NCBI GenBank assembly: GCA_964342365.1
Contig: CAYFGW010000002.1
Location: forward strand, 1-51,903
Origin: an uncultured Candidatus Sericytochromatia bacterium
Lineage (GTDB): Bacteria > Cyanobacteriota > Sericytochromatia > UBA7694
DNA length: 51,903 bases
Reading direction: 5' to 3'
The translations under genes and the position numbers were made by a program. The notes beneath the pieces were generated by a model that was given only the letters and a program-made list of their open reading frames with translations, ran no database searches and was not told the DNA's origin. Shown one piece after another: positions 10,635 to 29,899 of this stretch. The first letter of the stretch is position 1. The number at the start of each line of letters is the position of its first letter.

Positions 10635-10706
10635 GGCGATGTGGCCAAGTGGTAAGGCAGAGCTCTGCAAAAGCTTTATTCGCCGGTTCGAGTCCGGCCA
10701 TCGCCT
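10635..10706 (+). tRNA. tRNA-Cys (anticodon GCA)
   Basis: Cloverleaf folded by hand. Acceptor stem GGCGATG/CATCGCC; D arm GCC-AAGTGGTAA-GGC; anticodon stem GAGCT/AGCTT with loop CTGCAAA (GCA); T arm GCCGG-TTCGAGT-CCGGC. CCA is not encoded. Confidence 0.9.
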
Positions 10707-10721
10707 CTTTCTTTTGCTAAA

Positions 10722-18105: not shown

Positions 18106-18972
18106 TTACTCACCCATGTCCTGTTTTTTTTCTACCTGCTGCTGGTGCTGAGGGTTGTCCAACACGCGCTTTTTTTCTTCCAGCTTCTTTTTGAGGTGAA
18201 TATGTAAAGGCACTTCAGCATGGTCATCCTGGGTCACTTCAATAAGTGAATCCACGTCATAGCCCTGCTTTTTCATGCGCTTTACAATACCTTCGTATTG
18301 CTTGGGTTCCATGGTGGGCGTGCGGCTCATGATCCAGAGGTGCTTCTTATTGGGTGAACCGAGCACCACATGGTCATAATCATCACCTTTTTCGAGGATC
18401 ACGTAGTCCACTTCCAGCGGTCCAAAGAGCTTCAGGCGCATGTGGGTGTTGTTGTCATCCAGGATACGAGCGACCCCTTCTTTTTTGACGCTTTTGCCGT
18501 CAAGAGAACCCACGGCGGCCTCATACTCTACTTTATAGCGATCTTTTTCTTCAAGGGTAAAGGTTTTGCGGCTACCCACATGATTCTTTTCTGCGTGATA
18601 GGGCAGATGGGCAATTTCAAACCAGCGGCCCGCAAAGCGCTCCTGACTCACAGAAGGTGCCGTGCGCAGATCCGCAATCTGCTTTTTCACCTTTTTCTCA
18701 CGCAGCTTTACAGCGGCAAAAATACCGATGCCCGCCAGCACCAGACCGCCCAGGGTGGCTACAGCAGGTAGCACCACACTGCGTTCAATGCGTGTAGGAG
18801 CTTTAGACTTGATTTGACTCAAATCGGGGAACTGCAGGTTTTGCAGCTGCTTTTGCTGGGCTTTAATGGTTTTCTGAGCGCGTTTCTGCAAACGGCCCAG
18901 GTTTTTTTCAATGTCTTTTTCAATACTTTTAACGTGCTTGATGGCTTCATCAAGGGATTTATAGGTTTTCAT
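18106..18972 (-). CDS. Membrane-anchored lipocalin-domain protein (Blc-like core)
   Basis: 288 aa. Architecture is an N-terminal coiled coil, a TM helix (VVLPAVATLGGLVLAGIGIFAAV), a lipocalin signature (FAGRWFEIAHLPY) and a charged C-terminal tail. Confidence 0.65.
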   Translation of the reverse strand: MKTYKSLDEAIKHVKSIEKDIEKNLGRLQKRAQKTIKAQQKQLQNLQFPDLSQIKSKAPTRIERSVVLPAVATLGGLVLAGIGIFAAVKLREKKVKKQIADLRTAPSVSQERFAGRWFEIAHLPYHAEKNHVGSRKTFTLEEKDRYKVEYEAAVGSLDGKSVKKEGVARILDDNNTHMRLKLFGPLEVDYVILEKGDDYDHVVLGSPNKKHLWIMSRTPTMEPKQYEGIVKRMKKQGYDVDSLIEVTQDDHAEVPLHIHLKKKLEEKKRVLDNPQHQQQVEKKQDMGE

Positions 18973-19117
18973 GCAATATTCTCCAATATCTTGTGTTTAC
19001 TGAATTATGGCAAAAAAAACGTGCCTTTTGTATAGAGGCCCCGTTAAAATCCCGTCAAACTTCGCTTTCAATACGTTGAACATTTCTGTACTCTTATACT
19101 CACCAGCCACGGTGGCT

Positions 19118-19702
19118 TTAATTTCCCCTGGCAAGTGCCATGCGAACAAGCATATCGATTTGATACTCAAGACCCCCGTAAATATTAGCGGTGTAATCTT
19201 CAAATTCACCAGGATTAATTTTTTGATCACCATCGTAATCGAACTTCATCATGGATTGACTTTGAACTTCGTCGAGAGAGATAAACCCATCTTTGTTTCG
19301 ATCATCGCGATTGAAAAAAGTTCTGAATTCTTTTTGAAATCGCTCGGCAGAAAGATGCTCCCCCAACACCAGATCTTTTTGCTCCATGAAAGAGTTTCGA
19401 TCAACGCTTCCATCACTGATAGTGCTTTTCAATTGGGGATAATGAGCCTGATATTCGGAAGTCTCCAAATAGGTATTTCTGCTAACATCAAGACGGACAA
19501 AAACGGCTTTAGCTATGTCTCTACGTAGATTTTCAATGCTGTAAATACGTTGACTTTGTGGTCTTTGCTGGTTTTGGGAGAACAAAGCTGAAGCCCGTTG
19601 AGGCATGCGCGTCATTTGTGGAGAAATGGGGGTGTTGGTACGACATGCCCCTAAAACGAGTAGTGAGGCAGAGAAGATAATAGCTTGTAAGTGTTTTTTC
19701 AT
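19118..19702 (-). CDS. EF-hand calcium-binding lipoprotein
   Basis: ATG 19702 gives MKKHLQAIIFSASLLVLGAC, a signal peptide with lipobox. Two EF-hand loops are present: DRNKDGFISLDE and DYDGDQKINPGE. Confidence 0.65.
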   Translation of the reverse strand: MKKHLQAIIFSASLLVLGACRTNTPISPQMTRMPQRASALFSQNQQRPQSQRIYSIENLRRDIAKAVFVRLDVSRNTYLETSEYQAHYPQLKSTISDGSVDRNSFMEQKDLVLGEHLSAERFQKEFRTFFNRDDRNKDGFISLDEVQSQSMMKFDYDGDQKINPGEFEDYTANIYGGLEYQIDMLVRMALARGN

Positions 19703-19743
19703 AGTTTTACTTTCATTATATATTAACAACGGGTCGGAAGAGT

Positions 19744-20541
19744 TTATTCTTCCATATTCAAAACGGCAATACCTGCGCCAAGAGCTGCACCGAGACCTGC
19801 AGCCACAGGAGAAAAGCTTTGCAAACGATCGGAAATCATGGTGCTGGCCATGGCACTTGCAATTGCCATACCTCCTCCACCCAGAAGGGCGGCACCTGCA
19901 ACATTTTTAACGTTGTTGAGTTCTTTGTCTTCAAAGTCACTTGAAATGAGAGCGACACCAGCACCTACGGCGGCTCCCATGATGGTACCTTTGGCAGAAG
20001 GCCCGTGGATATAATTGGTAAGCATCGTGCTACTGATGGATTGTGCTGCAGCGGTCACACCACCACCAATGAGTGTACCAGCAGCCATATTTTTAAGAGA
20101 ATTTGTTGTTTCACTGCCAGTCTCTATGCCGAGTAATCCAACACCTGCACCAATGGCTGCTCCAATGCCCACACTCGTCATTCCGGGGCCAACACCGCGT
20201 TCCAGAAACATGCTCTTGCTTAAAGAAGCAGCCAGTGCAGAAGCTGATCCGCCAATTAAAGTACCACCCGCTATTTTTTTGATAACTCCCGTGCCCGAAG
20301 TTAGTTGAGAACCCTGGTATACGTCACTTGAGAGACTTGAAGCTTTTTGAGGCGTTGAAATGGGAGCAGATGATTGGGGAGCAGATGATTGGGGAGAAGG
20401 TTTAGTGGAAAAGGCTGGTCCGGTAATTACCACGCCACTCATGCTGTCGTTATATGTGCCTAATTTCATATTTTTAACTCTCTTTGTTACTCTGTTATTT
20501 TTGTTATAGGTATCCATTATGGGAAACACGGTTAAGGGCAA
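19744..20541 (-). CDS. Gly/Ala-rich membrane protein with three ~60-aa tandem glycine-zipper repeats
   Basis: 265-aa ORF whose start is uncertain (alternative MKLGTYN). It has a Ser/Pro-rich linker with PQSSAPQSSAP. Three repeats follow, of the form (I/L/V)K(K/N)(I/M/V)AG(G/A)(T/A)L(I/L)GG...(I/L)G(A)A(I/V/L)GAG(V/I)(G/A)(L/V)L. Confidence 0.55.
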   Translation of the reverse strand: MPLTVFPIMDTYNKNNRVTKRVKNMKLGTYNDSMSGVVITGPAFSTKPSPQSSAPQSSAPISTPQKASSLSSDVYQGSQLTSGTGVIKKIAGGTLIGGSASALAASLSKSMFLERGVGPGMTSVGIGAAIGAGVGLLGIETGSETTNSLKNMAAGTLIGGGVTAAAQSISSTMLTNYIHGPSAKGTIMGAAVGAGVALISSDFEDKELNNVKNVAGAALLGGGGMAIASAMASTMISDRLQSFSPVAAGLGAALGAGIAVLNMEE

Positions 20542-20623
20542 GATAATTTTAAGTAAAAGCTATCTCAAACCAGTTTTCGAACTATCTGACGCAAAAAGCT
20601 TATTTTTAACTGTCAAAACGTTA

Positions 20624-21097
20624 TCAAACCCAGCTGTATTCTAATTCGAATAGCTTTTTATTTTGATAGTTTGTATAACTGTCCGGCGACAGCCTGAAAT
20701 TCAGAGATGGGAACAAAATGTCTTCCGGCTCAATTATTTGAATTTCAAAGTATTGAGAGTGTGGTTCTTTTACCAAAAAAACTTTTTCTATTTCACAACC
20801 TAGAAGCGGTTGATTATCTGGCTCCAACCAAGAAGTAAATACTTTTGAATCATCGGGCACAAAAAAATGATTAACACAAAAATTTATTTGAATCTCATAA
20901 GACTCTTTCCTGCGTGAATTCATAACTCTTAAGTACTTCAAAGATAAAGAAGCTGAATTATCAAATCGATCAACTAAATCGAATATCATAGTTTCTGTTT
21001 CTAAGTCTGATTCAGAAGCTAATAAATATTGCTTTTGCACGGTCATACCCTGAAAGTTTCGCAAAATATTATTGAAGAAACTCACTTTCATATCCAC
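20624..21097 (-). CDS. Hypothetical protein (AT-rich islet; paralogue of 21142..21669)
   Basis: 157 aa in markedly AT-rich DNA. It shares a collinear pattern with its neighbour: ..ASLSLKYLRVMNSRRKESYEIQINF..F.P and LFELEYSW. Confidence 0.5.
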   Translation of the reverse strand: MDMKVSFFNNILRNFQGMTVQKQYLLASESDLETETMIFDLVDRFDNSASLSLKYLRVMNSRRKESYEIQINFCVNHFFVPDDSKVFTSWLEPDNQPLLGCEIEKVFLVKEPHSQYFEIQIIEPEDILFPSLNFRLSPDSYTNYQNKKLFELEYSWV

Positions 21098-21141
21098 CTC
21101 GTAGCCCCCTTAAAACTCAGCCATTGAAAGAAAAATAAGGA

Positions 21142-21669
21142 TTAATCATCGCGATCCAAATACCAATCATAATCTAAACTGGGAAAAGCTGAGCTAGGCT
21201 CGTTTTTTCCAAAGTCTGACAAATCCAATTCAAACAAAATAGAGTTATAACCTGGTGGAATTTTATCAGTCCCATCAGTACTCAAATCTATTCCTACAAT
21301 TAAAGAATCAACCTTACCAAAGTGTGTATCTGTTTCTAAAAAGGTAAAATACTCAAAAGTAAAACCCTCTAGCATATTATCCTGTAAAACCGGGATAAGG
21401 TTTGATTTCTCTGGCTTAAAGATATGAATATTTCCAAAAACAGTTATTTCATATTCGTAACCATGTTTGGTCTTTCCCTTATTATTTGACATTCTGATGT
21501 TTAGGGACGCAATGTCGCCATTATCACGAACAACATTAAAAACATGTTCTTCTGTTTGATTTTCAGTTATAGAATGAAAAATATAATAGCTTTTTATTTT
21601 CATTCCAACACAAGTCTCCAAAAGAGAAGCTAATATACTTGGTTGATTCACTTCATCAAGCCTCAGCAA
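21142..21669 (-). CDS. Hypothetical protein (AT-rich islet; paralogue of 20624..21097)
   Basis: 175 aa. IASLNIRMSNNKGKTKHGYEYEITVF..IFKP and LFELDLSD...LDYDWY align with the neighbouring ORF. Confidence 0.5.
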   Translation of the reverse strand: MLRLDEVNQPSILASLLETCVGMKIKSYYIFHSITENQTEEHVFNVVRDNGDIASLNIRMSNNKGKTKHGYEYEITVFGNIHIFKPEKSNLIPVLQDNMLEGFTFEYFTFLETDTHFGKVDSLIVGIDLSTDGTDKIPPGYNSILFELDLSDFGKNEPSSAFPSLDYDWYLDRDD

Positions 21670-22039
21670 AATCTGGATGTTGCCTTAATTTATTCACAGC
21701 GCAATCAGCAGCCCGCTGAATCAGCGGCAATAACTCCTCAAAGCTAAAACACTCACGCTCATAGATATCTTCATCCATTCCTACAACTCTCACAACAAAA
21801 CGCCCTGATGCCAGCAAGCTTTCCAACGAATGATGATCGGGATATTCGTTTTTGTAGCGATACCAATCCACCCATAATTGTATATCACCATAATATTCAA
21901 CCATGAGCATATCCTCTCCCAAAGTGATTTCCAAATTTCTCATGGATATAGACGGAATTTTTTTCAATGAATGTCGAAGAAGCCAGTTAATATGTGACAC
22001 CTTTCCAGGATAAAAATTTACTTTCGCTACAAATGACAT
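21656..22039 (-). CDS. Hypothetical protein (AT-rich islet)
   Basis: ATG 22039 (MSFVAKVNFYPGK...) is preceded by GAGGTGAG. The longer track ORF (to 22126) would read through the GC-rich hairpin element. Confidence 0.45.
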   Translation of the reverse strand: MSFVAKVNFYPGKVSHINWLLRHSLKKIPSISMRNLEITLGEDMLMVEYYGDIQLWVDWYRYKNEYPDHHSLESLLASGRFVVRVVGMDEDIYERECFSFEELLPLIQRAADCAVNKLRQHPDFAEA

Positions 22040-22089
22040 AAAACTCACCTCAGAATTAAAGAGCAGCGTGAAAAGTCGTTCATGAATAA

Positions 22090-22185
22090 GGGGGAATCCG
22101 CAAAGGGCCGCGCGCAGGACGCGCATCGGTGGCCCTTTGTGTCTTAGCGACAGAGCCTCACGGATGAGGCGGCGGAGCGTCCCCC
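22090..22185 (-). other. GC-rich multi-hairpin intergenic element (possible 3' UTR structure, REP/MITE-like element or small RNA)
   Basis: Outer pairing GGGGGA (22090..22095) / TCCCCC (22180..22185). Hairpin AAAGGGCC (22102..22109) / GGCCCTTT (22131..22138) contains a nested GCGCG/CGCGC stem. Hairpin GCCTCA (22155..22160) / TGAGGC (22165..22170). The element is flanked by direct ATGAAT repeats at 22082..22087 and 22191..22196. Confidence 0.4.
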
Positions 22186-22220
22186 GTTTTATGAATGACT
22201 TTGCCCCCCTCGCACTTCAA

Positions 22221-24038
22221 TCAAATAAAATCATCCGCATCCCGCCGCACCTCTTTACGGGCCAGCAAATGAAACTTCTGAATCCGCTGCAACACCCGCC
22301 GCGACACACTGGACAGCGGCAAATGATACAGTCTTTTATCATACTTATGAGCCAATTCAAACAAATAAGCCTCAGGCTTCTGACGGGCAAAGTAAAGAAT
22401 GTCCGGCCGCGGACTCAAATAAATCGCCTGACGAATCATATGCTCTTTGCGCAAATCCTCATCCACGTCCAGATCGTCAATATCCAGTTTGTGCTCCGGT
22501 GGCAAAGCGGGCTTAAAAGCCATGAGTGCGCCGTACTTGGCCTGAATAATTTCATGACTCACCGGATGCATCAGCGGATTGGAGGCATAAAAAGCAATGT
22601 CTGACTCGTTATGGTGCTCCGCCGACAGCGACAGCGCCCAGGGATACTTTTCCTGAGCGAGGTCTTCATCAAACATCAAAATCCAGCAGCCAATGGCCAG
22701 TTGTTCTTTTTTAAACTCTTTCACATAGAGCTTGTTTAGATGGCGATTGCGCAGGGTTTCACGCATGTCCAGACCGTCTAAAAGACTGCCGGTAAATTCG
22801 TGGGTGTACACCTTTTGAAAATGAGGATCGTCCGCCAGTTTATCGCCCAGACGATCAATGAAGTTTTCTAAGACAATATCTTCAGGAATATGAGAAAAAA
22901 AGCCAAAGTAAAACCACAGCGGCTGATACCCGTCGGGCAAATCTTCTTTTTTCTTTCGCACAATCAGCTGCTGCCAGTCCCGCTGTCCCTGAAGCATGGG
23001 CACGGGCAAGCGTCGCATCAGCTCAATCACGCGACCGTCCAGCGCAAAGCGTTTGTCGTGGGGGTCAAATTCAATTTCGGGCAAATCGTCTTCGTCTTCA
23101 TAATGGTACGCCCGGGCCAGATCCAGCAGTTCCAGGGCATAGTCATCGCCCAGCGTCTGCTTGGCCGCCAGCACCAGATTAAACAAGTCCGGAGACACCC
23201 GTTTGTCCGTGACCGACAGCTTATAAGCGTACTGCAGAAAATTACGCACCTCACGGGGAGAAAAGTCCGCTTCCTTTAAGGATTCCGCATTGCGAGCGGA
23301 CTGGGCCAGCTGCCGCAGCAGAGTATCACGGTGATAGCCCGTATTAAAGCGTCGTCCCAGCTCATAATGAAATACAAAATAGGGAATTTCTTCCAGGAGC
23401 GCTTCACGGGCCTTGGGGCCCACCTTGGCCAGAAAGGGTGCGTCCACATGCTCCGTTTCGTGCTCAAAAATCTGCTCTGAGCCCGCTTCCAAATGGGATT
23501 TAATCGACTCCCAGTGGCCCATACCGCATACAAAAAGCACCCGCTCATAACGCGCGCTGAGTTCTTTTAAACGGGCCGCCATGTGCCGCTCACGCCGATC
23601 GTCTTTTTTGGCATTGCCCGGTGCGGGTTTCAAGTGAGGGTGTACCGTCTCATAAAAGGCCGCAAGCCCTACACTTTCAATGGCTTCATCATCAGGAATG
23701 GCAAAGGCTTCTTCCTGTAAATTGTAATTTTCCACCGCCAGGTCAATCAGGGCCGCCGGAATCTGATTCTCTCTGGCCAGGCGCAATCCCTCAATCATGG
23801 GGTCAGAGGGAAAAACGGGCAAATAGGTGAGCCGCTGATCGGGCTGTCGCAGACAGAGTAAGCTCAACCGGGGCAAGCGCGCAATGCCCTGCAAAAGGTC
23901 TGAGTAGTAAATATCCGGCAGTTCCAGCGCCACCACATCCGGCGTTAACTCACCAAAAGCTTCACGCACCTGGCGGGCAAACTGGATGCGATTATGAAAC
24001 GCAGGGATGCAGTGAATATTTTTGTAGCGCAGGGCCAT
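22221..24038 (-). CDS. Large uncharacterised protein with an N-terminal TraB/PrgY/GumN (TIKI-superfamily)-like domain; possibly DUF5682-related
   Basis: 605 aa. The N-terminal ~185 aa carry the TraB-like motif order: IHCIPAFHNR (GTxH position), VVALELPD (Glu), RRERHMAARL, and RVLFVCGMGHWESI (GxGH). The remaining ~420 aa are unrecognised. The start overlaps the AAA gene stop (ATGA). Confidence 0.55.
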   Translation of the reverse strand: MALRYKNIHCIPAFHNRIQFARQVREAFGELTPDVVALELPDIYYSDLLQGIARLPRLSLLCLRQPDQRLTYLPVFPSDPMIEGLRLARENQIPAALIDLAVENYNLQEEAFAIPDDEAIESVGLAAFYETVHPHLKPAPGNAKKDDRRERHMAARLKELSARYERVLFVCGMGHWESIKSHLEAGSEQIFEHETEHVDAPFLAKVGPKAREALLEEIPYFVFHYELGRRFNTGYHRDTLLRQLAQSARNAESLKEADFSPREVRNFLQYAYKLSVTDKRVSPDLFNLVLAAKQTLGDDYALELLDLARAYHYEDEDDLPEIEFDPHDKRFALDGRVIELMRRLPVPMLQGQRDWQQLIVRKKKEDLPDGYQPLWFYFGFFSHIPEDIVLENFIDRLGDKLADDPHFQKVYTHEFTGSLLDGLDMRETLRNRHLNKLYVKEFKKEQLAIGCWILMFDEDLAQEKYPWALSLSAEHHNESDIAFYASNPLMHPVSHEIIQAKYGALMAFKPALPPEHKLDIDDLDVDEDLRKEHMIRQAIYLSPRPDILYFARQKPEAYLFELAHKYDKRLYHLPLSSVSRRVLQRIQKFHLLARKEVRRDADDFI

Positions 24039-25309
24039 CAGGCTTGATCGTCAGCAGCGTCGGAATCTTCATCCAGGACGTCATCCTCTAAGCGACTGTC
24101 TTCTGCTTCACTGGCTTTGCGACGCTTCTCCCATTCGGCAATATTTAAGCTGTCGGGAATATCTTTAGCACTCAAATCAGGCAAAGATTTACCGTCGTCC
24201 TTTGCTTTTTCGGTCTGGGCGGCTTCAAAAGCCTCTAATTCTTCGGGGGTGATTTCAATAAACTCAATCTCAAACCCCTGGGCCCGCAGCGCGTCTGCGA
24301 GCTTGCTGTCTAAGGTAAAGTCCACGTCATCTACATCAAAATCTTCCAGATCCAACTCAATTTCTAACTCCTCTTCCGTGTCCGCCTCCTCAGAAGCAGA
24401 CGTCTCCTCAGAAACAGGAGTAGGATTGCCGCCCAACAAAAGCACGTTGGGAAGTTTCAGAGTGGGAGGTTTGGGCTTATTCACACACTTTTTCAGGAAG
24501 AGTTGCTCCGCTTCCTTGCCCAGAATCTGAACCAGAGACCGGGAAATGGCTTCTAAGGTGGGCGTCTGATTCAGGTGAATATGTTTAATGGCGTAGCGGG
24601 CAACGTTCACGCCATCACGGGTGCTATAGGCTTTTTTGTCCGCGTGACTTTGCTGTAAGAACTCGCCCACCCACTTTAAAATATCTTCAGGGGCCTCAGG
24701 CAAGTTCACCCGCAAAATTTCCATTTCTTCTTCCGCAGGGGGAAAACCCACTTCAATTTGAGGCTGTAAACGAGATTGGATATAGTCAGGCACGTCAAAG
24801 GTACTGGCGTCGTCATTCATGGTCACCGCCAGACGGAAATCGGGGTGCGCGGGAATTTTAATACCCGCAATCAGACTTTCCACGTAGCGCCGGGTATCCA
24901 TTAAGGGAGCCAACGAAGCCCAGGATTTTTCGCCCATACGATTGCCCTCATCCAGAATACAAATGCCTCCCTTGAGCATGGCGGTCACAAGGGGACTGGC
25001 GTGGTAGCGAATATTCTGCGTTTCTCCGATCACCGGTGTGACCAGTAAATCCTCAGGACGAGTATCCACGGTACATTGCAAAATGTAGACCTGCTCGGTG
25101 TAGTCTCTGGCCACGGCGTAAGCCAGGGTGGTTTTACCAATACCGGGCTTGCCAATAATGCGCGGGCTCATGGGCAAATCTTCGTTAGAAAGAATGAGCC
25201 AGGCCGCCTGCAGCTGACGTTTGACTTCCTGATGACCAATCCAGCGTACGTCCATCCGTGTGGGTTCTGCCATCACCAGATCAACGCCTTTGACTTTCAT
25301 AATTTCCAT
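24038..25309 (-). CDS. AAA+ ATPase, AAA_5 / MoxR-CbbQ-NorQ-like, with a hyper-acidic C-terminal tail
   Basis: 423 aa. Walker A is IIGKPGIGKTTLAYAVA and Walker B is GICILDEGNRM. DFRLAVTMND and QSRLQPQIEVGFPP match the sensor/Arg-finger region pattern of the AAA_5 family. By my count, 46 of the last 129 residues are Asp/Glu. Confidence 0.85.
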   Translation of the reverse strand: MEIMKVKGVDLVMAEPTRMDVRWIGHQEVKRQLQAAWLILSNEDLPMSPRIIGKPGIGKTTLAYAVARDYTEQVYILQCTVDTRPEDLLVTPVIGETQNIRYHASPLVTAMLKGGICILDEGNRMGEKSWASLAPLMDTRRYVESLIAGIKIPAHPDFRLAVTMNDDASTFDVPDYIQSRLQPQIEVGFPPAEEEMEILRVNLPEAPEDILKWVGEFLQQSHADKKAYSTRDGVNVARYAIKHIHLNQTPTLEAISRSLVQILGKEAEQLFLKKCVNKPKPPTLKLPNVLLLGGNPTPVSEETSASEEADTEEELEIELDLEDFDVDDVDFTLDSKLADALRAQGFEIEFIEITPEELEAFEAAQTEKAKDDGKSLPDLSAKDIPDSLNIAEWEKRRKASEAEDSRLEDDVLDEDSDAADDQA

Positions 25310-25417
25310 GAACTCTGCCTCCGGCTTTTGGGGTCATTTTAACACGTGCTCACCATTCGATTGTATTGAGCGCTTTTTTCAGCGTATGCTAATTAAAAAC
25401 CCTCGAAAGGTATCCTT

Positions 25418-26942: not shown

Positions 26943-27827
26943 ATGTTTAAATTACGTTTTATGGCCCTTTCGGCTGCACTGATGATGGGATTAAGCAGTT
27001 GCGCGGGCAATTTACCCGGTAGTGAGGCCCCCAACGACGCGTTTTCGCTCCTGGCTAACGAGCAGGTTGACCAGAAACAGCATCGTCGTGGCAAGCACCA
27101 CAAGCGGGGGCATCACGGCATGATGTTCGGTTTTCTGGCACGAGATCTGAATCTGACCGATGCTCAAAAAGCTGAGTTCAAAAGTCTGATGCAGGCAGGT
27201 CGCGAAGAGCATAAGGCCATGGGCACACAAATGAAAGCTTTCAAGCAAAGTGTAAAAACCGCTTTTCTCTCTGACAGCTTTGACGCCAATGCTCTGCAAG
27301 CAGAATGGGCCCAAATCAAAGCCCAGAACACAAATCCCCACCAAAAAATGGCTGAAAAAATGGTGCAGGCCTGGAATATTCTGACCCCCGCACAACAAGC
27401 CAAAGTGGAAGAACGCATGAATAAGCTAGAAGAACGCATGGCCAGGTGGGAAGGTAAAAAGGGGGAAGGCCAAAGAGAAGGCAAACACGGTAAAAAGCTG
27501 GCTCGCCTGACCCAGGCTCTGGATTTAACCCCTGAGCAACAGGCCACCTTAAAAACCCGCTGGGAATCGAATCAGGCAGAGCGCCAGGATCGCCGGGCAC
27601 GCATGAAATCCGTTAAAAATGCGGTATTTGCTCAGCTAAAAGCCGGTGGTAGTGCCGCCGATGTGGCACAGGCCATGGCGCCCATGATGGACAGTATGGA
27701 AGGCAAATCCTCGAAGTACCTGAATCGTCTGGCAGGTTTTCACGATGTGCTCACCGCCGAACAACGCCAGAAGCTGGTGACTTTAATGGAACAGCATAAA
27801 CACAAGCGTCACCACGGACGTCGCTAA
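26943..27827 (+). CDS. Spy/CpxP/ZraP-family periplasmic protein, duplicated (four LTxxQ motifs), lipoprotein with His-rich termini
   Basis: 294 aa with lipobox MMGLSSC. The LTxxQ motifs are LTDAQKAEF, LTPAQQAKV, LTPEQQATL and LTAEQRQKL. The His-rich segments are HRRGKHHKRGHHG and HKHKRHHGRR. The stop overlaps the response regulator start. Confidence 0.7.
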   Translation: MFKLRFMALSAALMMGLSSCAGNLPGSEAPNDAFSLLANEQVDQKQHRRGKHHKRGHHGMMFGFLARDLNLTDAQKAEFKSLMQAGREEHKAMGTQMKAFKQSVKTAFLSDSFDANALQAEWAQIKAQNTNPHQKMAEKMVQAWNILTPAQQAKVEERMNKLEERMARWEGKKGEGQREGKHGKKLARLTQALDLTPEQQATLKTRWESNQAERQDRRARMKSVKNAVFAQLKAGGSAADVAQAMAPMMDSMEGKSSKYLNRLAGFHDVLTAEQRQKLVTLMEQHKHKRHHGRR

Positions 27828-28546
27828 TGCCTCACATTCACCTCATTGACGATGATGCCGCTTTACACGATTTGTTGGGCACCTACTTTAAGGACAGTGA
27901 CTGGACCCTGAGCGGCAGTGAAACGCCATCAGCGGCCTTTGCATACCTCAACGACAATGCGGTGGATCTGGTGATTCTGGACGTGATGCTACCCGAAATG
28001 GACGGGTTTGCCGTCTGTCGCGAGTTGCGGCAGCGGCAGGCCCATTTGCCCATTTTAATGCTCACCGCCCGGGGTGACGATATGAACACCATTCTGGGGT
28101 TGGAAATGGGAGCCGACGACTATATGTCCAAGCCCTTTAACCCCCGGGAATTAGAAGCCCGTATCAAAACCATTTTAAGACGCATTGAACGCTACGAAGA
28201 TCGTGAACCCGCCACCGTTCATGAAGTGTATACCTCACCCGGCTGGGATCTCAGCCTCAACGTGGATACCCGCAAGGTCAGCCTGAAAGGTGAAGACATT
28301 GAGCTGACGGCCACGGAATTCGATTTGCTCAAAATTTTAATGGCCAATCCGGGACGTGTCCTCAGCCGGGATGCGCTGATGCAGAAACTGCGGGGGTACG
28401 ACTGGGAAGTCACCGATCGCAGCGTGGATATGCACGTGAGCAAACTGCGTCAGAAGCTGGGGGATCCATCCCGCAAACCCCTCATGTTGAAAACCGTCTG
28501 GGGCGTGGGCTATGTGTTTTCTGAACCCCGCAGTAAAAAATCCTGA
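27827..28546 (+). CDS. OmpR/PhoB-family response regulator
   Basis: 239 aa. The receiver domain shows IDDD...DLVILDVMLPEMDG...KP. The winged-helix output shows LTATEFDLLKILMANPGRVLSRDAL...VDMHVSKLRQKL...WGVGYVF. Confidence 0.9.
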   Translation: MPHIHLIDDDAALHDLLGTYFKDSDWTLSGSETPSAAFAYLNDNAVDLVILDVMLPEMDGFAVCRELRQRQAHLPILMLTARGDDMNTILGLEMGADDYMSKPFNPRELEARIKTILRRIERYEDREPATVHEVYTSPGWDLSLNVDTRKVSLKGEDIELTATEFDLLKILMANPGRVLSRDALMQKLRGYDWEVTDRSVDMHVSKLRQKLGDPSRKPLMLKTVWGVGYVFSEPRSKKS

Positions 28547-29899
28547 ATGCAGCGGCTTTACCGTCAGGTCTATTTGTATACCGTGGCCGTGGTTATGATG
28601 AGCATGTTGCTGGCTACCGGTGTGGCTGGACTGGTGTTCAACCGCAGAGAACAGGGACTCATTAAGCAGATTATTCGCAGTCAGGTGGTGTTTATTCGCC
28701 AGGAAGTTCAGAAGGTCCAGCGTACGGATCCCCGGCGTTTGCCCCAGCGTCTGGCGGAATTATCAAAACAATTGAGCTGGGATATGGCGTACTGGTACGA
28801 CGGTCAGCTCCTCTACAGCTCTGTGGCTAACCCACCACCGGTACAAGAGCTCAGAACCACCCGTCAACTGCGCAGTCGCACCTTCTGGTGGACCCACAGA
28901 AACGGTCACCAGACCGCCATTGCCCTGCGGGTCTTTCCCCGCTCCCGCAAAGGGCTTCTCTGGCTGGAACCCCGTTGGGGAGCTGTAGGCAAGGGGCTTC
29001 TCAAAGGACCCTTACTGGGGCTTACTCTTCTGCTGGTCTTTCTGGGGCTTTTACTGATTCCCTTGACCCGTTTTTTACTGCGCCCCTACCGGGAGCTGCA
29101 ATGGTCTATTGAGCGGCTGTCCGGGGGCAATTTTCATGAGGAAATTGAGCCGGAAAAATACAAAGCCTTTGCTCCCTTACTCATGTCCTTTAACCAGATG
29201 CAGCAGCATGTTCAGGGCATGATTCAGCAAAAACAGCGTTTAGTGGCCGATGTCTCCCACGAATTGCGTTCTCCTCTTACCCGCATGCGGGTGGCTCTTG
29301 AAATTTTACGCACCAAAAACGATCCCAAACTGATTGAGCAGGCCATTCAGGAAATTGAAGAACTCGACCATATTATTGAAGATGTGTTAGAGGTGTCGCG
29401 CCTGCAGTTAAAGGGCCTACAACTGGCTTATGAGCCGGTGGATCTCACGCTCTTCTTTTTTGAACTGCTTGAAGATTACGAACTGAGTTTTGAAAAGCAT
29501 GACTTTTCGCTGGAGGTTCAGATGCCCGAAGAAAGCCTCTGGCTCCATGCGGACCCCCGCTTACTGAAGCGTCTGTTTAGCAATCTGCTTAGCAACGCCC
29601 TCAAATACGTGCCCGGGCCAGCCACCCTGTCTCTGAGCCTCTCAAAGCAAAGTGAGCAGGTGTACATTCAGCTTCAGGACACGGGGCCGGGGATTGCCCC
29701 CGATCACTTAAAACACATCTTTACGCCTTTTTACCGTTTAGAAGATTCTCGCCACCGCAACAAGGGCGGCGTGGGACTGGGACTGGCCATTGCCTACGAA
29801 ATTGTACAGGCCCACGGAGGGCACATTCGCCTGACCAATAAAACGGCTCCCCATACGGGACTGATTTACGATATTGAATTGCCCATCGACCGTCCTTAG
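28547..29899 (+). CDS. Sensor histidine kinase (two TM, HAMP, HisKA, HATPase_c)
   Basis: 450 aa. The H-box is VSHELRSPLT, the N-box is LLSNALKY, G1 is DTGPGI and G2 is GGVGLGLAI. Confidence 0.9.
   Translation: MQRLYRQVYLYTVAVVMMSMLLATGVAGLVFNRREQGLIKQIIRSQVVFIRQEVQKVQRTDPRRLPQRLAELSKQLSWDMAYWYDGQLLYSSVANPPPVQELRTTRQLRSRTFWWTHRNGHQTAIALRVFPRSRKGLLWLEPRWGAVGKGLLKGPLLGLTLLLVFLGLLLIPLTRFLLRPYRELQWSIERLSGGNFHEEIEPEKYKAFAPLLMSFNQMQQHVQGMIQQKQRLVADVSHELRSPLTRMRVALEILRTKNDPKLIEQAIQEIEELDHIIEDVLEVSRLQLKGLQLAYEPVDLTLFFFELLEDYELSFEKHDFSLEVQMPEESLWLHADPRLLKRLFSNLLSNALKYVPGPATLSLSLSKQSEQVYIQLQDTGPGIAPDHLKHIFTPFYRLEDSRHRNKGGVGLGLAIAYEIVQAHGGHIRLTNKTAPHTGLIYDIELPIDRP

Follow-up and report, generated by a model that had tools for sequence, protein, structure and literature searches.

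What does a MoxR-type AAA+ ATPase work with when the large protein encoded beside it carries no von Willebrand factor A (vWA) domain? The question is raised by a two-gene module in a 51,903-nucleotide stretch of DNA from an uncultured Candidatus Sericytochromatia bacterium (contig CAYFGW010000002.1; the whole stretch is referred to as the window), in which the gene for an AAA_5 ATPase runs directly into that for a 605-residue protein, here called the partner. What is understood of MoxR-clade ATPases comes almost wholly from their vWA/MIDAS partners, namely CbbO, NorD, ViaA, CoxE, the MIDAS domain of midasin and the chelatase D subunits; CbbQO acts on Rubisco, NorQD on NO reductase and CoxDE on CO dehydrogenase. 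ATPases of this clade work with a cognate co-chaperone that is nearly always a vWA protein (PMC7159879). No vWA domain was found in the partner, by sequence or by fold, or among its conserved neighbours in the loci that we fetched. We tentatively favour the reading that the pair is a MoxR-type remodeller with a dedicated non-vWA partner serving as adaptor or effector. The module is real and widely conserved; compared with a preliminary description of this DNA made from the sequence alone, its context is more ordinary, being core genome, and its composition more unusual.

A genome scan with an 8-sequence alignment found relatives of the partner encoded in at least 579 species-representative genomes, and the linkage counts given here refer to the best 80 loci from these genomes. 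Those 80 belong to Sericytochromatia/Blackallbacteria, the cultured Geobacter and Geomonas, Desulfobacca, Syntrophobacterales, Parachlamydiaceae/Protochlamydia, Sumerlaeia, Acidobacteria and Myxococcales; members from Planctomycetota and Acidimicrobiia turned up in further searches. In 61 of the best 80 loci, which span Cyanobacteriota (Sericytochromatia), Desulfobacterota, Chlamydiota, Acidobacteriota, Myxococcota and Sumerlaeota, the partner gene is immediately preceded by an ATPase gene of the same strand, and in three more the two genes are 1–5 kb apart. Sampling in the reverse direction from six ATPase homologues at about 60% identity found a partner homologue immediately downstream in five (hmmsearch expectation value (E) 1e-176 to 1e-182). 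The two genes remain adjacent in at least eight bacterial phyla, and the neighbourhood survey thus bears out the pairing proposed in the preliminary description. Clustering of open reading frames (ORFs) from 86 loci for a third conserved gene recovered lineage-level synteny only, with no vWA gene, SWIM gene or candidate client, so that the lack of a vWA or SWIM partner gene first noted for the window now extends to more than 80 loci. An apparent third-gene cluster of 14 loci proved to be an antisense ORF artefact.

An exhaustive search with a hidden Markov model of the partner returned 2093 clusters (50% identity) at a threshold of E≤1e-3; 710 of them pass E≤1e-30, and one constant full-length architecture was seen across the 2093. 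No ATPase–partner fusion occurred among the 150 best representatives. Across phyla the partners share about 30% identity, as against a median of 54% between the window ATPase and its cross-phylum orthologues. Members are labelled only 'hypothetical protein', 'AAA family ATPase' or 'MoxR-like ATPase' in their source records, a comparison that covers those records and not published papers, and neither Pfam nor NCBIfam holds a model of the partner family's own.

Both ORFs of the preliminary description are present on the minus strand, and its assignment of the 423-residue product to an AAA_5-type ATPase with the Walker A sequence GKPGIGKT is upheld by a Pfam AAA_5 match at E 6.2e-16 and 59.1 bits (cut-off 22). 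Judged by sequence, the ATPase belongs to the MoxR clade of AAA_5 proteins, and its nearest solved relatives are the midasin AAA domain (E 7e-13), CbbQ (5c3c, E 7e-8) and NorQ (9qhd, E 5.5e-6), with the CbbQ and NorQ alignments confined to residues 43–200 of the AAA core, and a Pfam search found no CbbQ_C domain in it. A helix-2 insert is characteristic of the clade, and a conserved TxDTRPEDL segment follows Walker A here. Conservation of 97% or more is seen at 94 positions in an alignment of 55 orthologues from Cyanobacteriota, Desulfobacterota, Chlamydiota and Acidobacteriota; GKPGxGKT, hhhhDE, TMN (163–165) and RDGxN..RYA (231–240) reach that level, and all catalytic motifs are intact. By tblastn, residues 1–267 are 52–60% identical to orthologues in Geobacter, Chlamydiota and Acidobacteria. 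The ATPase family comprises at least 8000 matches at E<1e-10 with a typical length of 272–297 residues; orthologues of that length in other phyla lack the acidic 138-residue tail of the window protein, which is restricted to close Sericytochromatia relatives. Tail length varies among those relatives, whose ATPases total about 320–444 residues.

The junction of the two genes reads GCC-TGA-TGG-CC, in which the TGA of the ATPase gene and the ATG of the partner gene have one base in common. The four-base ATGA overlap given earlier is therefore a misreading of TGATG, although coupling is still tight. Overlaps or gaps of a few bases are common at the junctions of orthologous pairs: 21 of 54 measurable pairs overlap, and all 54 have both genes on the same strand. 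The divergent arrangement of msrB and the ATPase gene recurs in two further loci (L090 and L091). The operon promoter would presumably lie between these two genes, but a scan of the interval for the sigma-70 consensus gave no match; promoter and terminator scans of the region were uninformative. Within the Sericytochromatia lineage the two genes form a chromosomal operon conserved by vertical descent.

We modeled the partner with AlphaFold2 on 38 homologues, and the full-length model has a predicted local distance difference test score (pLDDT) of 88.7 and a predicted template modeling score (pTM) of 0.80. Insertions and length variation of the relatives fall in the linker between the middle and C-terminal domains (alignment A1, columns ~440–560). 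The maximum 19-residue Kyte-Doolittle hydropathy is 0.88; having no hydrophobic segment, the partner is probably soluble and cytoplasmic. Its first ~185 residues do contain, in order, all four TraB-like motifs noticed previously: AFH (H15), LELP (E39), RERHMA (R149/E150) and GMGHWESI (G172-x-x-H175). H15, E39, R149, E150 and H175 are retained in 76 of 78 aligned close partners, which argues that the motifs are not due to chance. The TraB/TIKI order is reportedly an N-terminal His, a Glu after the second strand, an Arg-Glu helix and a GxxH at the end of the domain. Profile matches are weak and all lie within residues 139–188, covering the last two motifs: Pfam DUF5682 (PF18934) at E 2e-4 and 20.3 bits (cut-off 26), over positions 164–214 of a model of ~727; TIGR00261 TraB at E 6e-4 and 18.8 bits (threshold 178); and PF01963 TraB at E 0.029 and 14.7 bits (threshold 26.8), the latter two falling on residues 147–184. 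Weak DUF5682 matches occur in 17 of 38 members of the partner family, the best at E 1.2e-6.

A further comparison used a profile built from a 23-sequence alignment of relatives of E. coli YehM, a DUF5682 protein. The N-domains alone align by hhalign with a probability of 93.3% (E 2.8e-7) and the full profiles with 70% (E 4.2e-5), with a weak extension to partner residue about 332. In this alignment H15, E39, R149-E150 and G172-x-x-H175 of the partner correspond to H11/H12, E35, R175-E176 and G199-x-x-H202 of YehM. When the full-length model was searched against BFVD with Foldseek, the sole significant match was a Marseillevirus TraB family protein (E 1.8e-5, probability 1.00, template modeling (TM) score on the target 0.40), a match that on the model presumably belongs to the N-domain; no TIKI-superfamily structure was recovered from the PDB for the partner models. 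The agreement of the YehM profile match with the Marseillevirus fold match supports, at the level of sequence and predicted fold, a TraB/TIKI-like N-domain homologous to that of YehM/DUF5682.

The ~420 residues that follow, which the preliminary description could not assign, found no match in Pfam, NCBIfam, PADLOC, PDB sequences or PDB folds either. A search of PDB sequences with the single sequence and with the profile gave nothing for the partner, and no characterized family emerged from the profile and Foldseek searches. The C-terminal domain modeled alone has a pLDDT of 88.2 and a pTM of 0.82; its best PDB match by Foldseek has E 0.19 and TM≤0.21, and that of the full-length model has E 0.02 and TM 0.13, leaving no structural neighbour. 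The latter match is a Tetrahymena mitochondrial complex IV subunit (7w5z_E, 8b6h_DQ and 8bqs_DQ; probability 0.63, 323 aligned columns), which may itself be a protein with a TraB domain. Scattered Foldseek matches to PTP, AAA, Clp-N, restriction endonuclease and RNase HII structures are at noise level. Searched with Foldseek, neither the full nor the domain model revealed a vWA fold or any other known fold concealed in the C-terminal ~400 residues, and a second TraB lobe arising by internal duplication was rejected, as hhalign of the C-terminal domain against the partner's own N-domain gave a probability of 0.1%. Conservation is nevertheless concentrated there: of 17 markers (S382, E386, D387, E391, D421, G422, E427, T428, R430, E474, H475, E478, S479, D480, Y484, H590 and R598), most are identical in all 78 aligned partners and the remainder in no fewer than 74. 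The acidic/His cluster that they form would be the likeliest centre for binding a ligand, a metal or a client.

The two ends of the partner have fared differently across the family. Among 134 full-length representatives at 50% identity, H15, E39 and H175 are intact in 88 (66%) and lost in 46, and all 17 C-terminal markers are nearly invariant. The five partners reached through ATPase homologues (L087, L088 and L092–L094, from Acidimicrobiia, Acidobacteria and others) have P-E-x-x-x at the motif positions, and a planctomycete-like clade lacks E39 and H175 (alignment A1). Where the TraB-like residues are gone, the C-terminal cluster and the ATPase of the pair are both still conserved. Whole clades, of the Acidimicrobiia/Acidobacteria type and planctomycete-like, have replaced the TraB-type His/Arg/His while retaining every C-terminal marker. 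These sequences point to an apparent enzyme-to-pseudoenzyme transition inside one orthologous family. Because the C-terminal markers are near-invariant and the TraB-like triad is often lost, the family-wide function depends on the ATPase and the C-terminal domain; judged from the aligned residues, the TraB-like site is intact in the window partner and dispensable family-wide.

This distribution bears directly on the strongest alternative, that the pair is an ATPase-gated TraB/TIKI-type hydrolase in which the AAA+ ring opens or loads an N-terminal metallo-protease or esterase site of the partner, with hydrolysis as the purpose of the pair. The complete H15/E39/R149-E150/H175 constellation in the window and its close relatives, the homology to the DUF5682 N-domain, the TraB motif matches and the fold similarity to a TraB protein all speak for it. 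The constellation is however missing from 46 of the 134 representatives and from all five partners reached through ATPase homologues, where the ATPase and C-terminal cluster persist, and the PDB search with Foldseek yielded no TIKI-superfamily structure. Gated hydrolysis, which the preliminary description had entertained, does not survive these losses as a general function of the family, and as an explanation of the pair we consider it rather unlikely.

Table 1. Positions of the module and adjoining features in the window
Feature	Coordinates	Strand	Basis
ATPase gene, 423 aa, stop codon included	24038..25309	-	ORF
Partner gene, 605 aa, stop codon included	22221..24038	-	ORF
TGATG junction, ATPase stop and partner start	24036..24040	-	sequence read directly
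Divergent intergenic region between ATPase gene and msrB, presumed operon promoter region	25310..25417	.	gene layout
AAA+ core, ATPase residues 1-285	24455..25309	-	alignment of 55 ATPases; tblastn
Walker A GKPGIGKT, ATPase residues 53-60	25130..25153	-	alignment of 55 ATPases
TxDTRPEDL motif after Walker A, ATPase residues 80-88	within 24455..25309	-	conserved, alignment of 55 ATPases
Walker B CILDE, ATPase residues 116-121, ending E121	24947..24964	-	alignment of 55 ATPases
Acidic low-complexity C-terminal tail, ATPase residues 286-423, 33% Asp+Glu	24041..24454	-	composition
Partner N-domain, residues 1-200, TraB/TIKI-like alpha/beta, H15, E39, R149-E150, H175	23439..24038	-	hhalign, Foldseek, motifs
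Partner middle domain, residues 208-310, six-helix bundle	23109..23417	-	AlphaFold2, block pLDDT 84-96
Partner variable linker and beta-hairpin, residues 311-374, lower confidence	22917..23108	-	AlphaFold2, block pLDDT 64-83
Partner C-terminal alpha/beta domain, residues 375-605	22224..22916	-	AlphaFold2; conserved acidic/His cluster
AT-rich islet, 3.2 kb, 36-43% GC against ~50% around	18973-22220	five minus-strand ORFs	comparison with L090

In the remodeller–adaptor reading that we tentatively favour, the ATPase would form the usual hexameric ring, and the partner would hold the position taken elsewhere by vWA co-chaperones such as CbbO, NorD, ViaA (with RavA) and CoxE, serving one-to-one as a cognate adaptor or effector, to be gripped and remodelled by the ring at the expense of ATP. 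The C-terminal alpha/beta domain would be the business end, binding a metal or ligand or holding a client as a functional stand-in for a MIDAS site. In the window, the TraB/TIKI-like N-domain may add an ATPase-gated hydrolytic step, peptidase- or esterase-like; because these residues are gone from a third of the family, such hydrolysis cannot be the universal function. The genomic setting favours a housekeeping role over defence, which could be, for example, the maturation or quality control of proteins or complexes.

Several points weigh against this reading. About 16 of the 80 loci have no ATPase gene that we could find upstream of the partner, although a few of them have too little upstream sequence. 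One of the six ATPase homologues (L089) is followed not by a partner but by an unrelated DUF4153 membrane protein, which suggests that this genome has undergone a local rearrangement and encodes its partner at another place. Linkage is accordingly strong and not obligatory. The reading further presupposes a physical ATPase–partner complex, which we infer, and it assigns an adaptor role to a protein without a vWA/MIDAS domain; the likeness of the C-terminal cluster to a MIDAS site is one that we infer purely by analogy. The L089 locus lies in a Sericytochromatia metagenome-assembled genome (JAXLXH010000001.1, 6001–8661). Its ATPase is 59% identical to that of the window, its DUF4153 protein has 609 residues, near the length of the partner, and a transposase (DDE_3) gene and a PDDEXK_2 gene lie just upstream of the ATPase gene.

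If the favoured reading is true, a non-vWA partner would be a second way to link a MoxR motor to its clients, and a function would be at hand for a protein family of roughly 700–2000 clusters, one whose most conserved domain is without a structural neighbour in the PDB. Its members include proteins of the cultured Geobacter and Geomonas, of environmental chlamydiae and of non-photosynthetic relatives of cyanobacteria, and the partial decay of its TraB-like site would make it a natural experiment in the transition from enzyme to scaffold. The broader proposition is somewhat more doubtful: that the pair founds a widespread class of MoxR-type AAA+ systems (at least eight phyla, about 700–2000 clusters at 50% identity) in which the vWA co-chaperone is replaced by a partner combining a TraB/TIKI-like domain with a C-terminal domain whose fold no solved structure has yet shown, and which carries out an unrecognized housekeeping remodelling or processing reaction.

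A further explanation is that the pair acts as a classical MoxR maturation factor, which activates a single, specific client enzyme encoded away from the pair or supplies it with a metal or cofactor. The ATPase is indeed nearest CbbQ and NorQ, the partner has the size of NorD and CbbO, and its invariant acidic/His cluster is compatible with metal handling. Yet no client gene is conserved beside the pair in any lineage, there is neither vWA/MIDAS nor CbbQ_C, and the hosts have no obvious metabolic trait in common, ranging from aerobic Sericytochromatia through anaerobic Geobacter to intracellular Parachlamydiaceae. We regard this explanation as unlikely.

The module had also been placed in a conflict or defence island, on account of the AT-rich cluster of orphan genes that adjoins it in the window, and could on that ground be an anti-phage module in the manner of the MoxR–vWA ternary systems or of AAA+ defence ATPases. 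Comparison with the closest relative (L090), whose partner is 78% identical to that of the window, argues otherwise. Its gene order is msrB, divergent from the ATPase gene, then partner and lipocalin genes, and further on Poly_export, GNVR and HMGL, and 100 bp lie between the partner gene and the start of the lipocalin gene. In the window, the 3.2 kb of 36–43% GC intervene between the partner gene and the lipocalin orthologue (66% identity); the islet is therefore an insertion specific to the window and not part of the module. Its ORFs encode orphans of 156, 175 and 157 residues, a 265-residue Gly/Ala-rich protein and a 203-residue EF-hand protein; none has a counterpart in any fetched locus, no convincing repeat flanks the islet, and no tRNA gene lies at it, the only one in the window being at 10635–10707. 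The synteny msrB–ATPase–partner–...–Poly_export–GNVR–HMGL is conserved in Sericytochromatia, and in other phyla the module is flanked by housekeeping genes (DNA polymerase I, IF3, SerRS, TyrRS, ScpAB and enolase/iPGM). PADLOC-DB 2.0 has no model matching above noise: the partner finds none, and the ATPase draws only P-loop-level, sub-threshold matches (E≥1.6e-4), among them TRIP13, AbiO and Nhi. Nor is there a vWA or effector domain, and the ATPase, at ~54% identity between phyla, contrasts with conflict systems, which typically diversify fast. On these grounds a defence role appears highly improbable, and the island setting proposed earlier is not sustained.

Some neighbouring genes deserve a brief description. 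Two of the islet ORFs, at 20624–21097 (157 residues) and 21142–21669 (175 residues), form a weakly similar paralogous pair (BLASTP E 3e-6, 27% identity over 82 residues), and these two orphans have no match in Pfam, NCBIfam or PADLOC. The lipocalin gene (18106–18972) encodes a Lipocalin_2 (Blc-like) protein with a ~100-residue N-terminal extension that contains a hydrophobic stretch; it is conserved at 66% and syntenic in L090. On the other side of the module, positions 26943–29899 encode three proteins in a row: a His-rich periplasmic LTXXQ/CpxP-like protein, an OmpR-type response regulator and a histidine kinase. The trio adjoins msrB in L090 as well and looks like a conserved envelope or metal-stress unit next to the module.

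How, then, does the pair compare with systems already described? The Yeh cluster of E. coli, YehL-YehM-YehP-YehQ (AAA_5/DUF5682/VWA/SWIM), is to our knowledge itself uncharacterized. It has the same order of an AAA_5 ATPase followed by a large protein, the N-terminal ~200 residues of that protein are homologous to those of the partner, and YehM has the same H / E / RE / GxxH motif order. The likeness to yehL-yehM in the preliminary description thus holds for the N-domain and fails for the remainder: the ATPase has no similarity to YehL outside the P-loop, and the C-terminal ~400 residues of the partner match the 530 of YehM with an hhalign probability below 1%. Full DUF5682/YehM membership was rejected, as the N-domain alone aligns. 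That the pair is a reduced Yeh system, a true DUF5682 protein that lost its vWA and SWIM partners, is scarcely credible in spite of the weak DUF5682 matches, the N-domain homology and the shared gene order, because the DUF5682 score stays under its gathering threshold, the alignment is limited to the first ~200–300 residues, no relationship is seen between the C-terminal halves or, specifically, between the ATPases, and none of more than 80 loci has a vWA or SWIM gene.

From the TraB/PrgY/GumN/TIKI superfamily of putative metallo-hydrolases the partner has the ordered motifs, the weak TIGR00261 and PF01963 matches and the Marseillevirus TraB fold match. It differs in scores far under the thresholds, in its fusion to ~400 residues unknown in TraB proteins, in being paired with an AAA+ ATPase and in the loss of catalytic-type residues from about a third of the family.

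The MoxR–vWA ternary conflict systems (Kaur et al. 2020, PMC7159879) have in common with the pair a MoxR-clade ATPase as the presumed ATP-driven switch for a partner, whereas the module lacks a vWA, a VMAP or iSTAND protein as third component and any effector domain. The pair also differs from conflict systems in its core-genome setting and slow evolution.

The closest comparison remains that with CbbQ-CbbO and NorQ-NorD of the CGN subgroup. In contrast to these, the partner has no vWA/MIDAS by sequence or fold and a TraB-like N-domain instead of the N-terminal region of CbbO/NorD, the ATPase has no CbbQ_C, and no client gene (Rubisco, NOR) is linked. In their core and layout they agree: the ~275-residue AAA_5 core is most similar to theirs among solved bacterial proteins, its catalytic motifs are intact, and both are two-gene units in which a large partner, ~600–770 residues in the known adaptors, is encoded immediately downstream of the ATPase.

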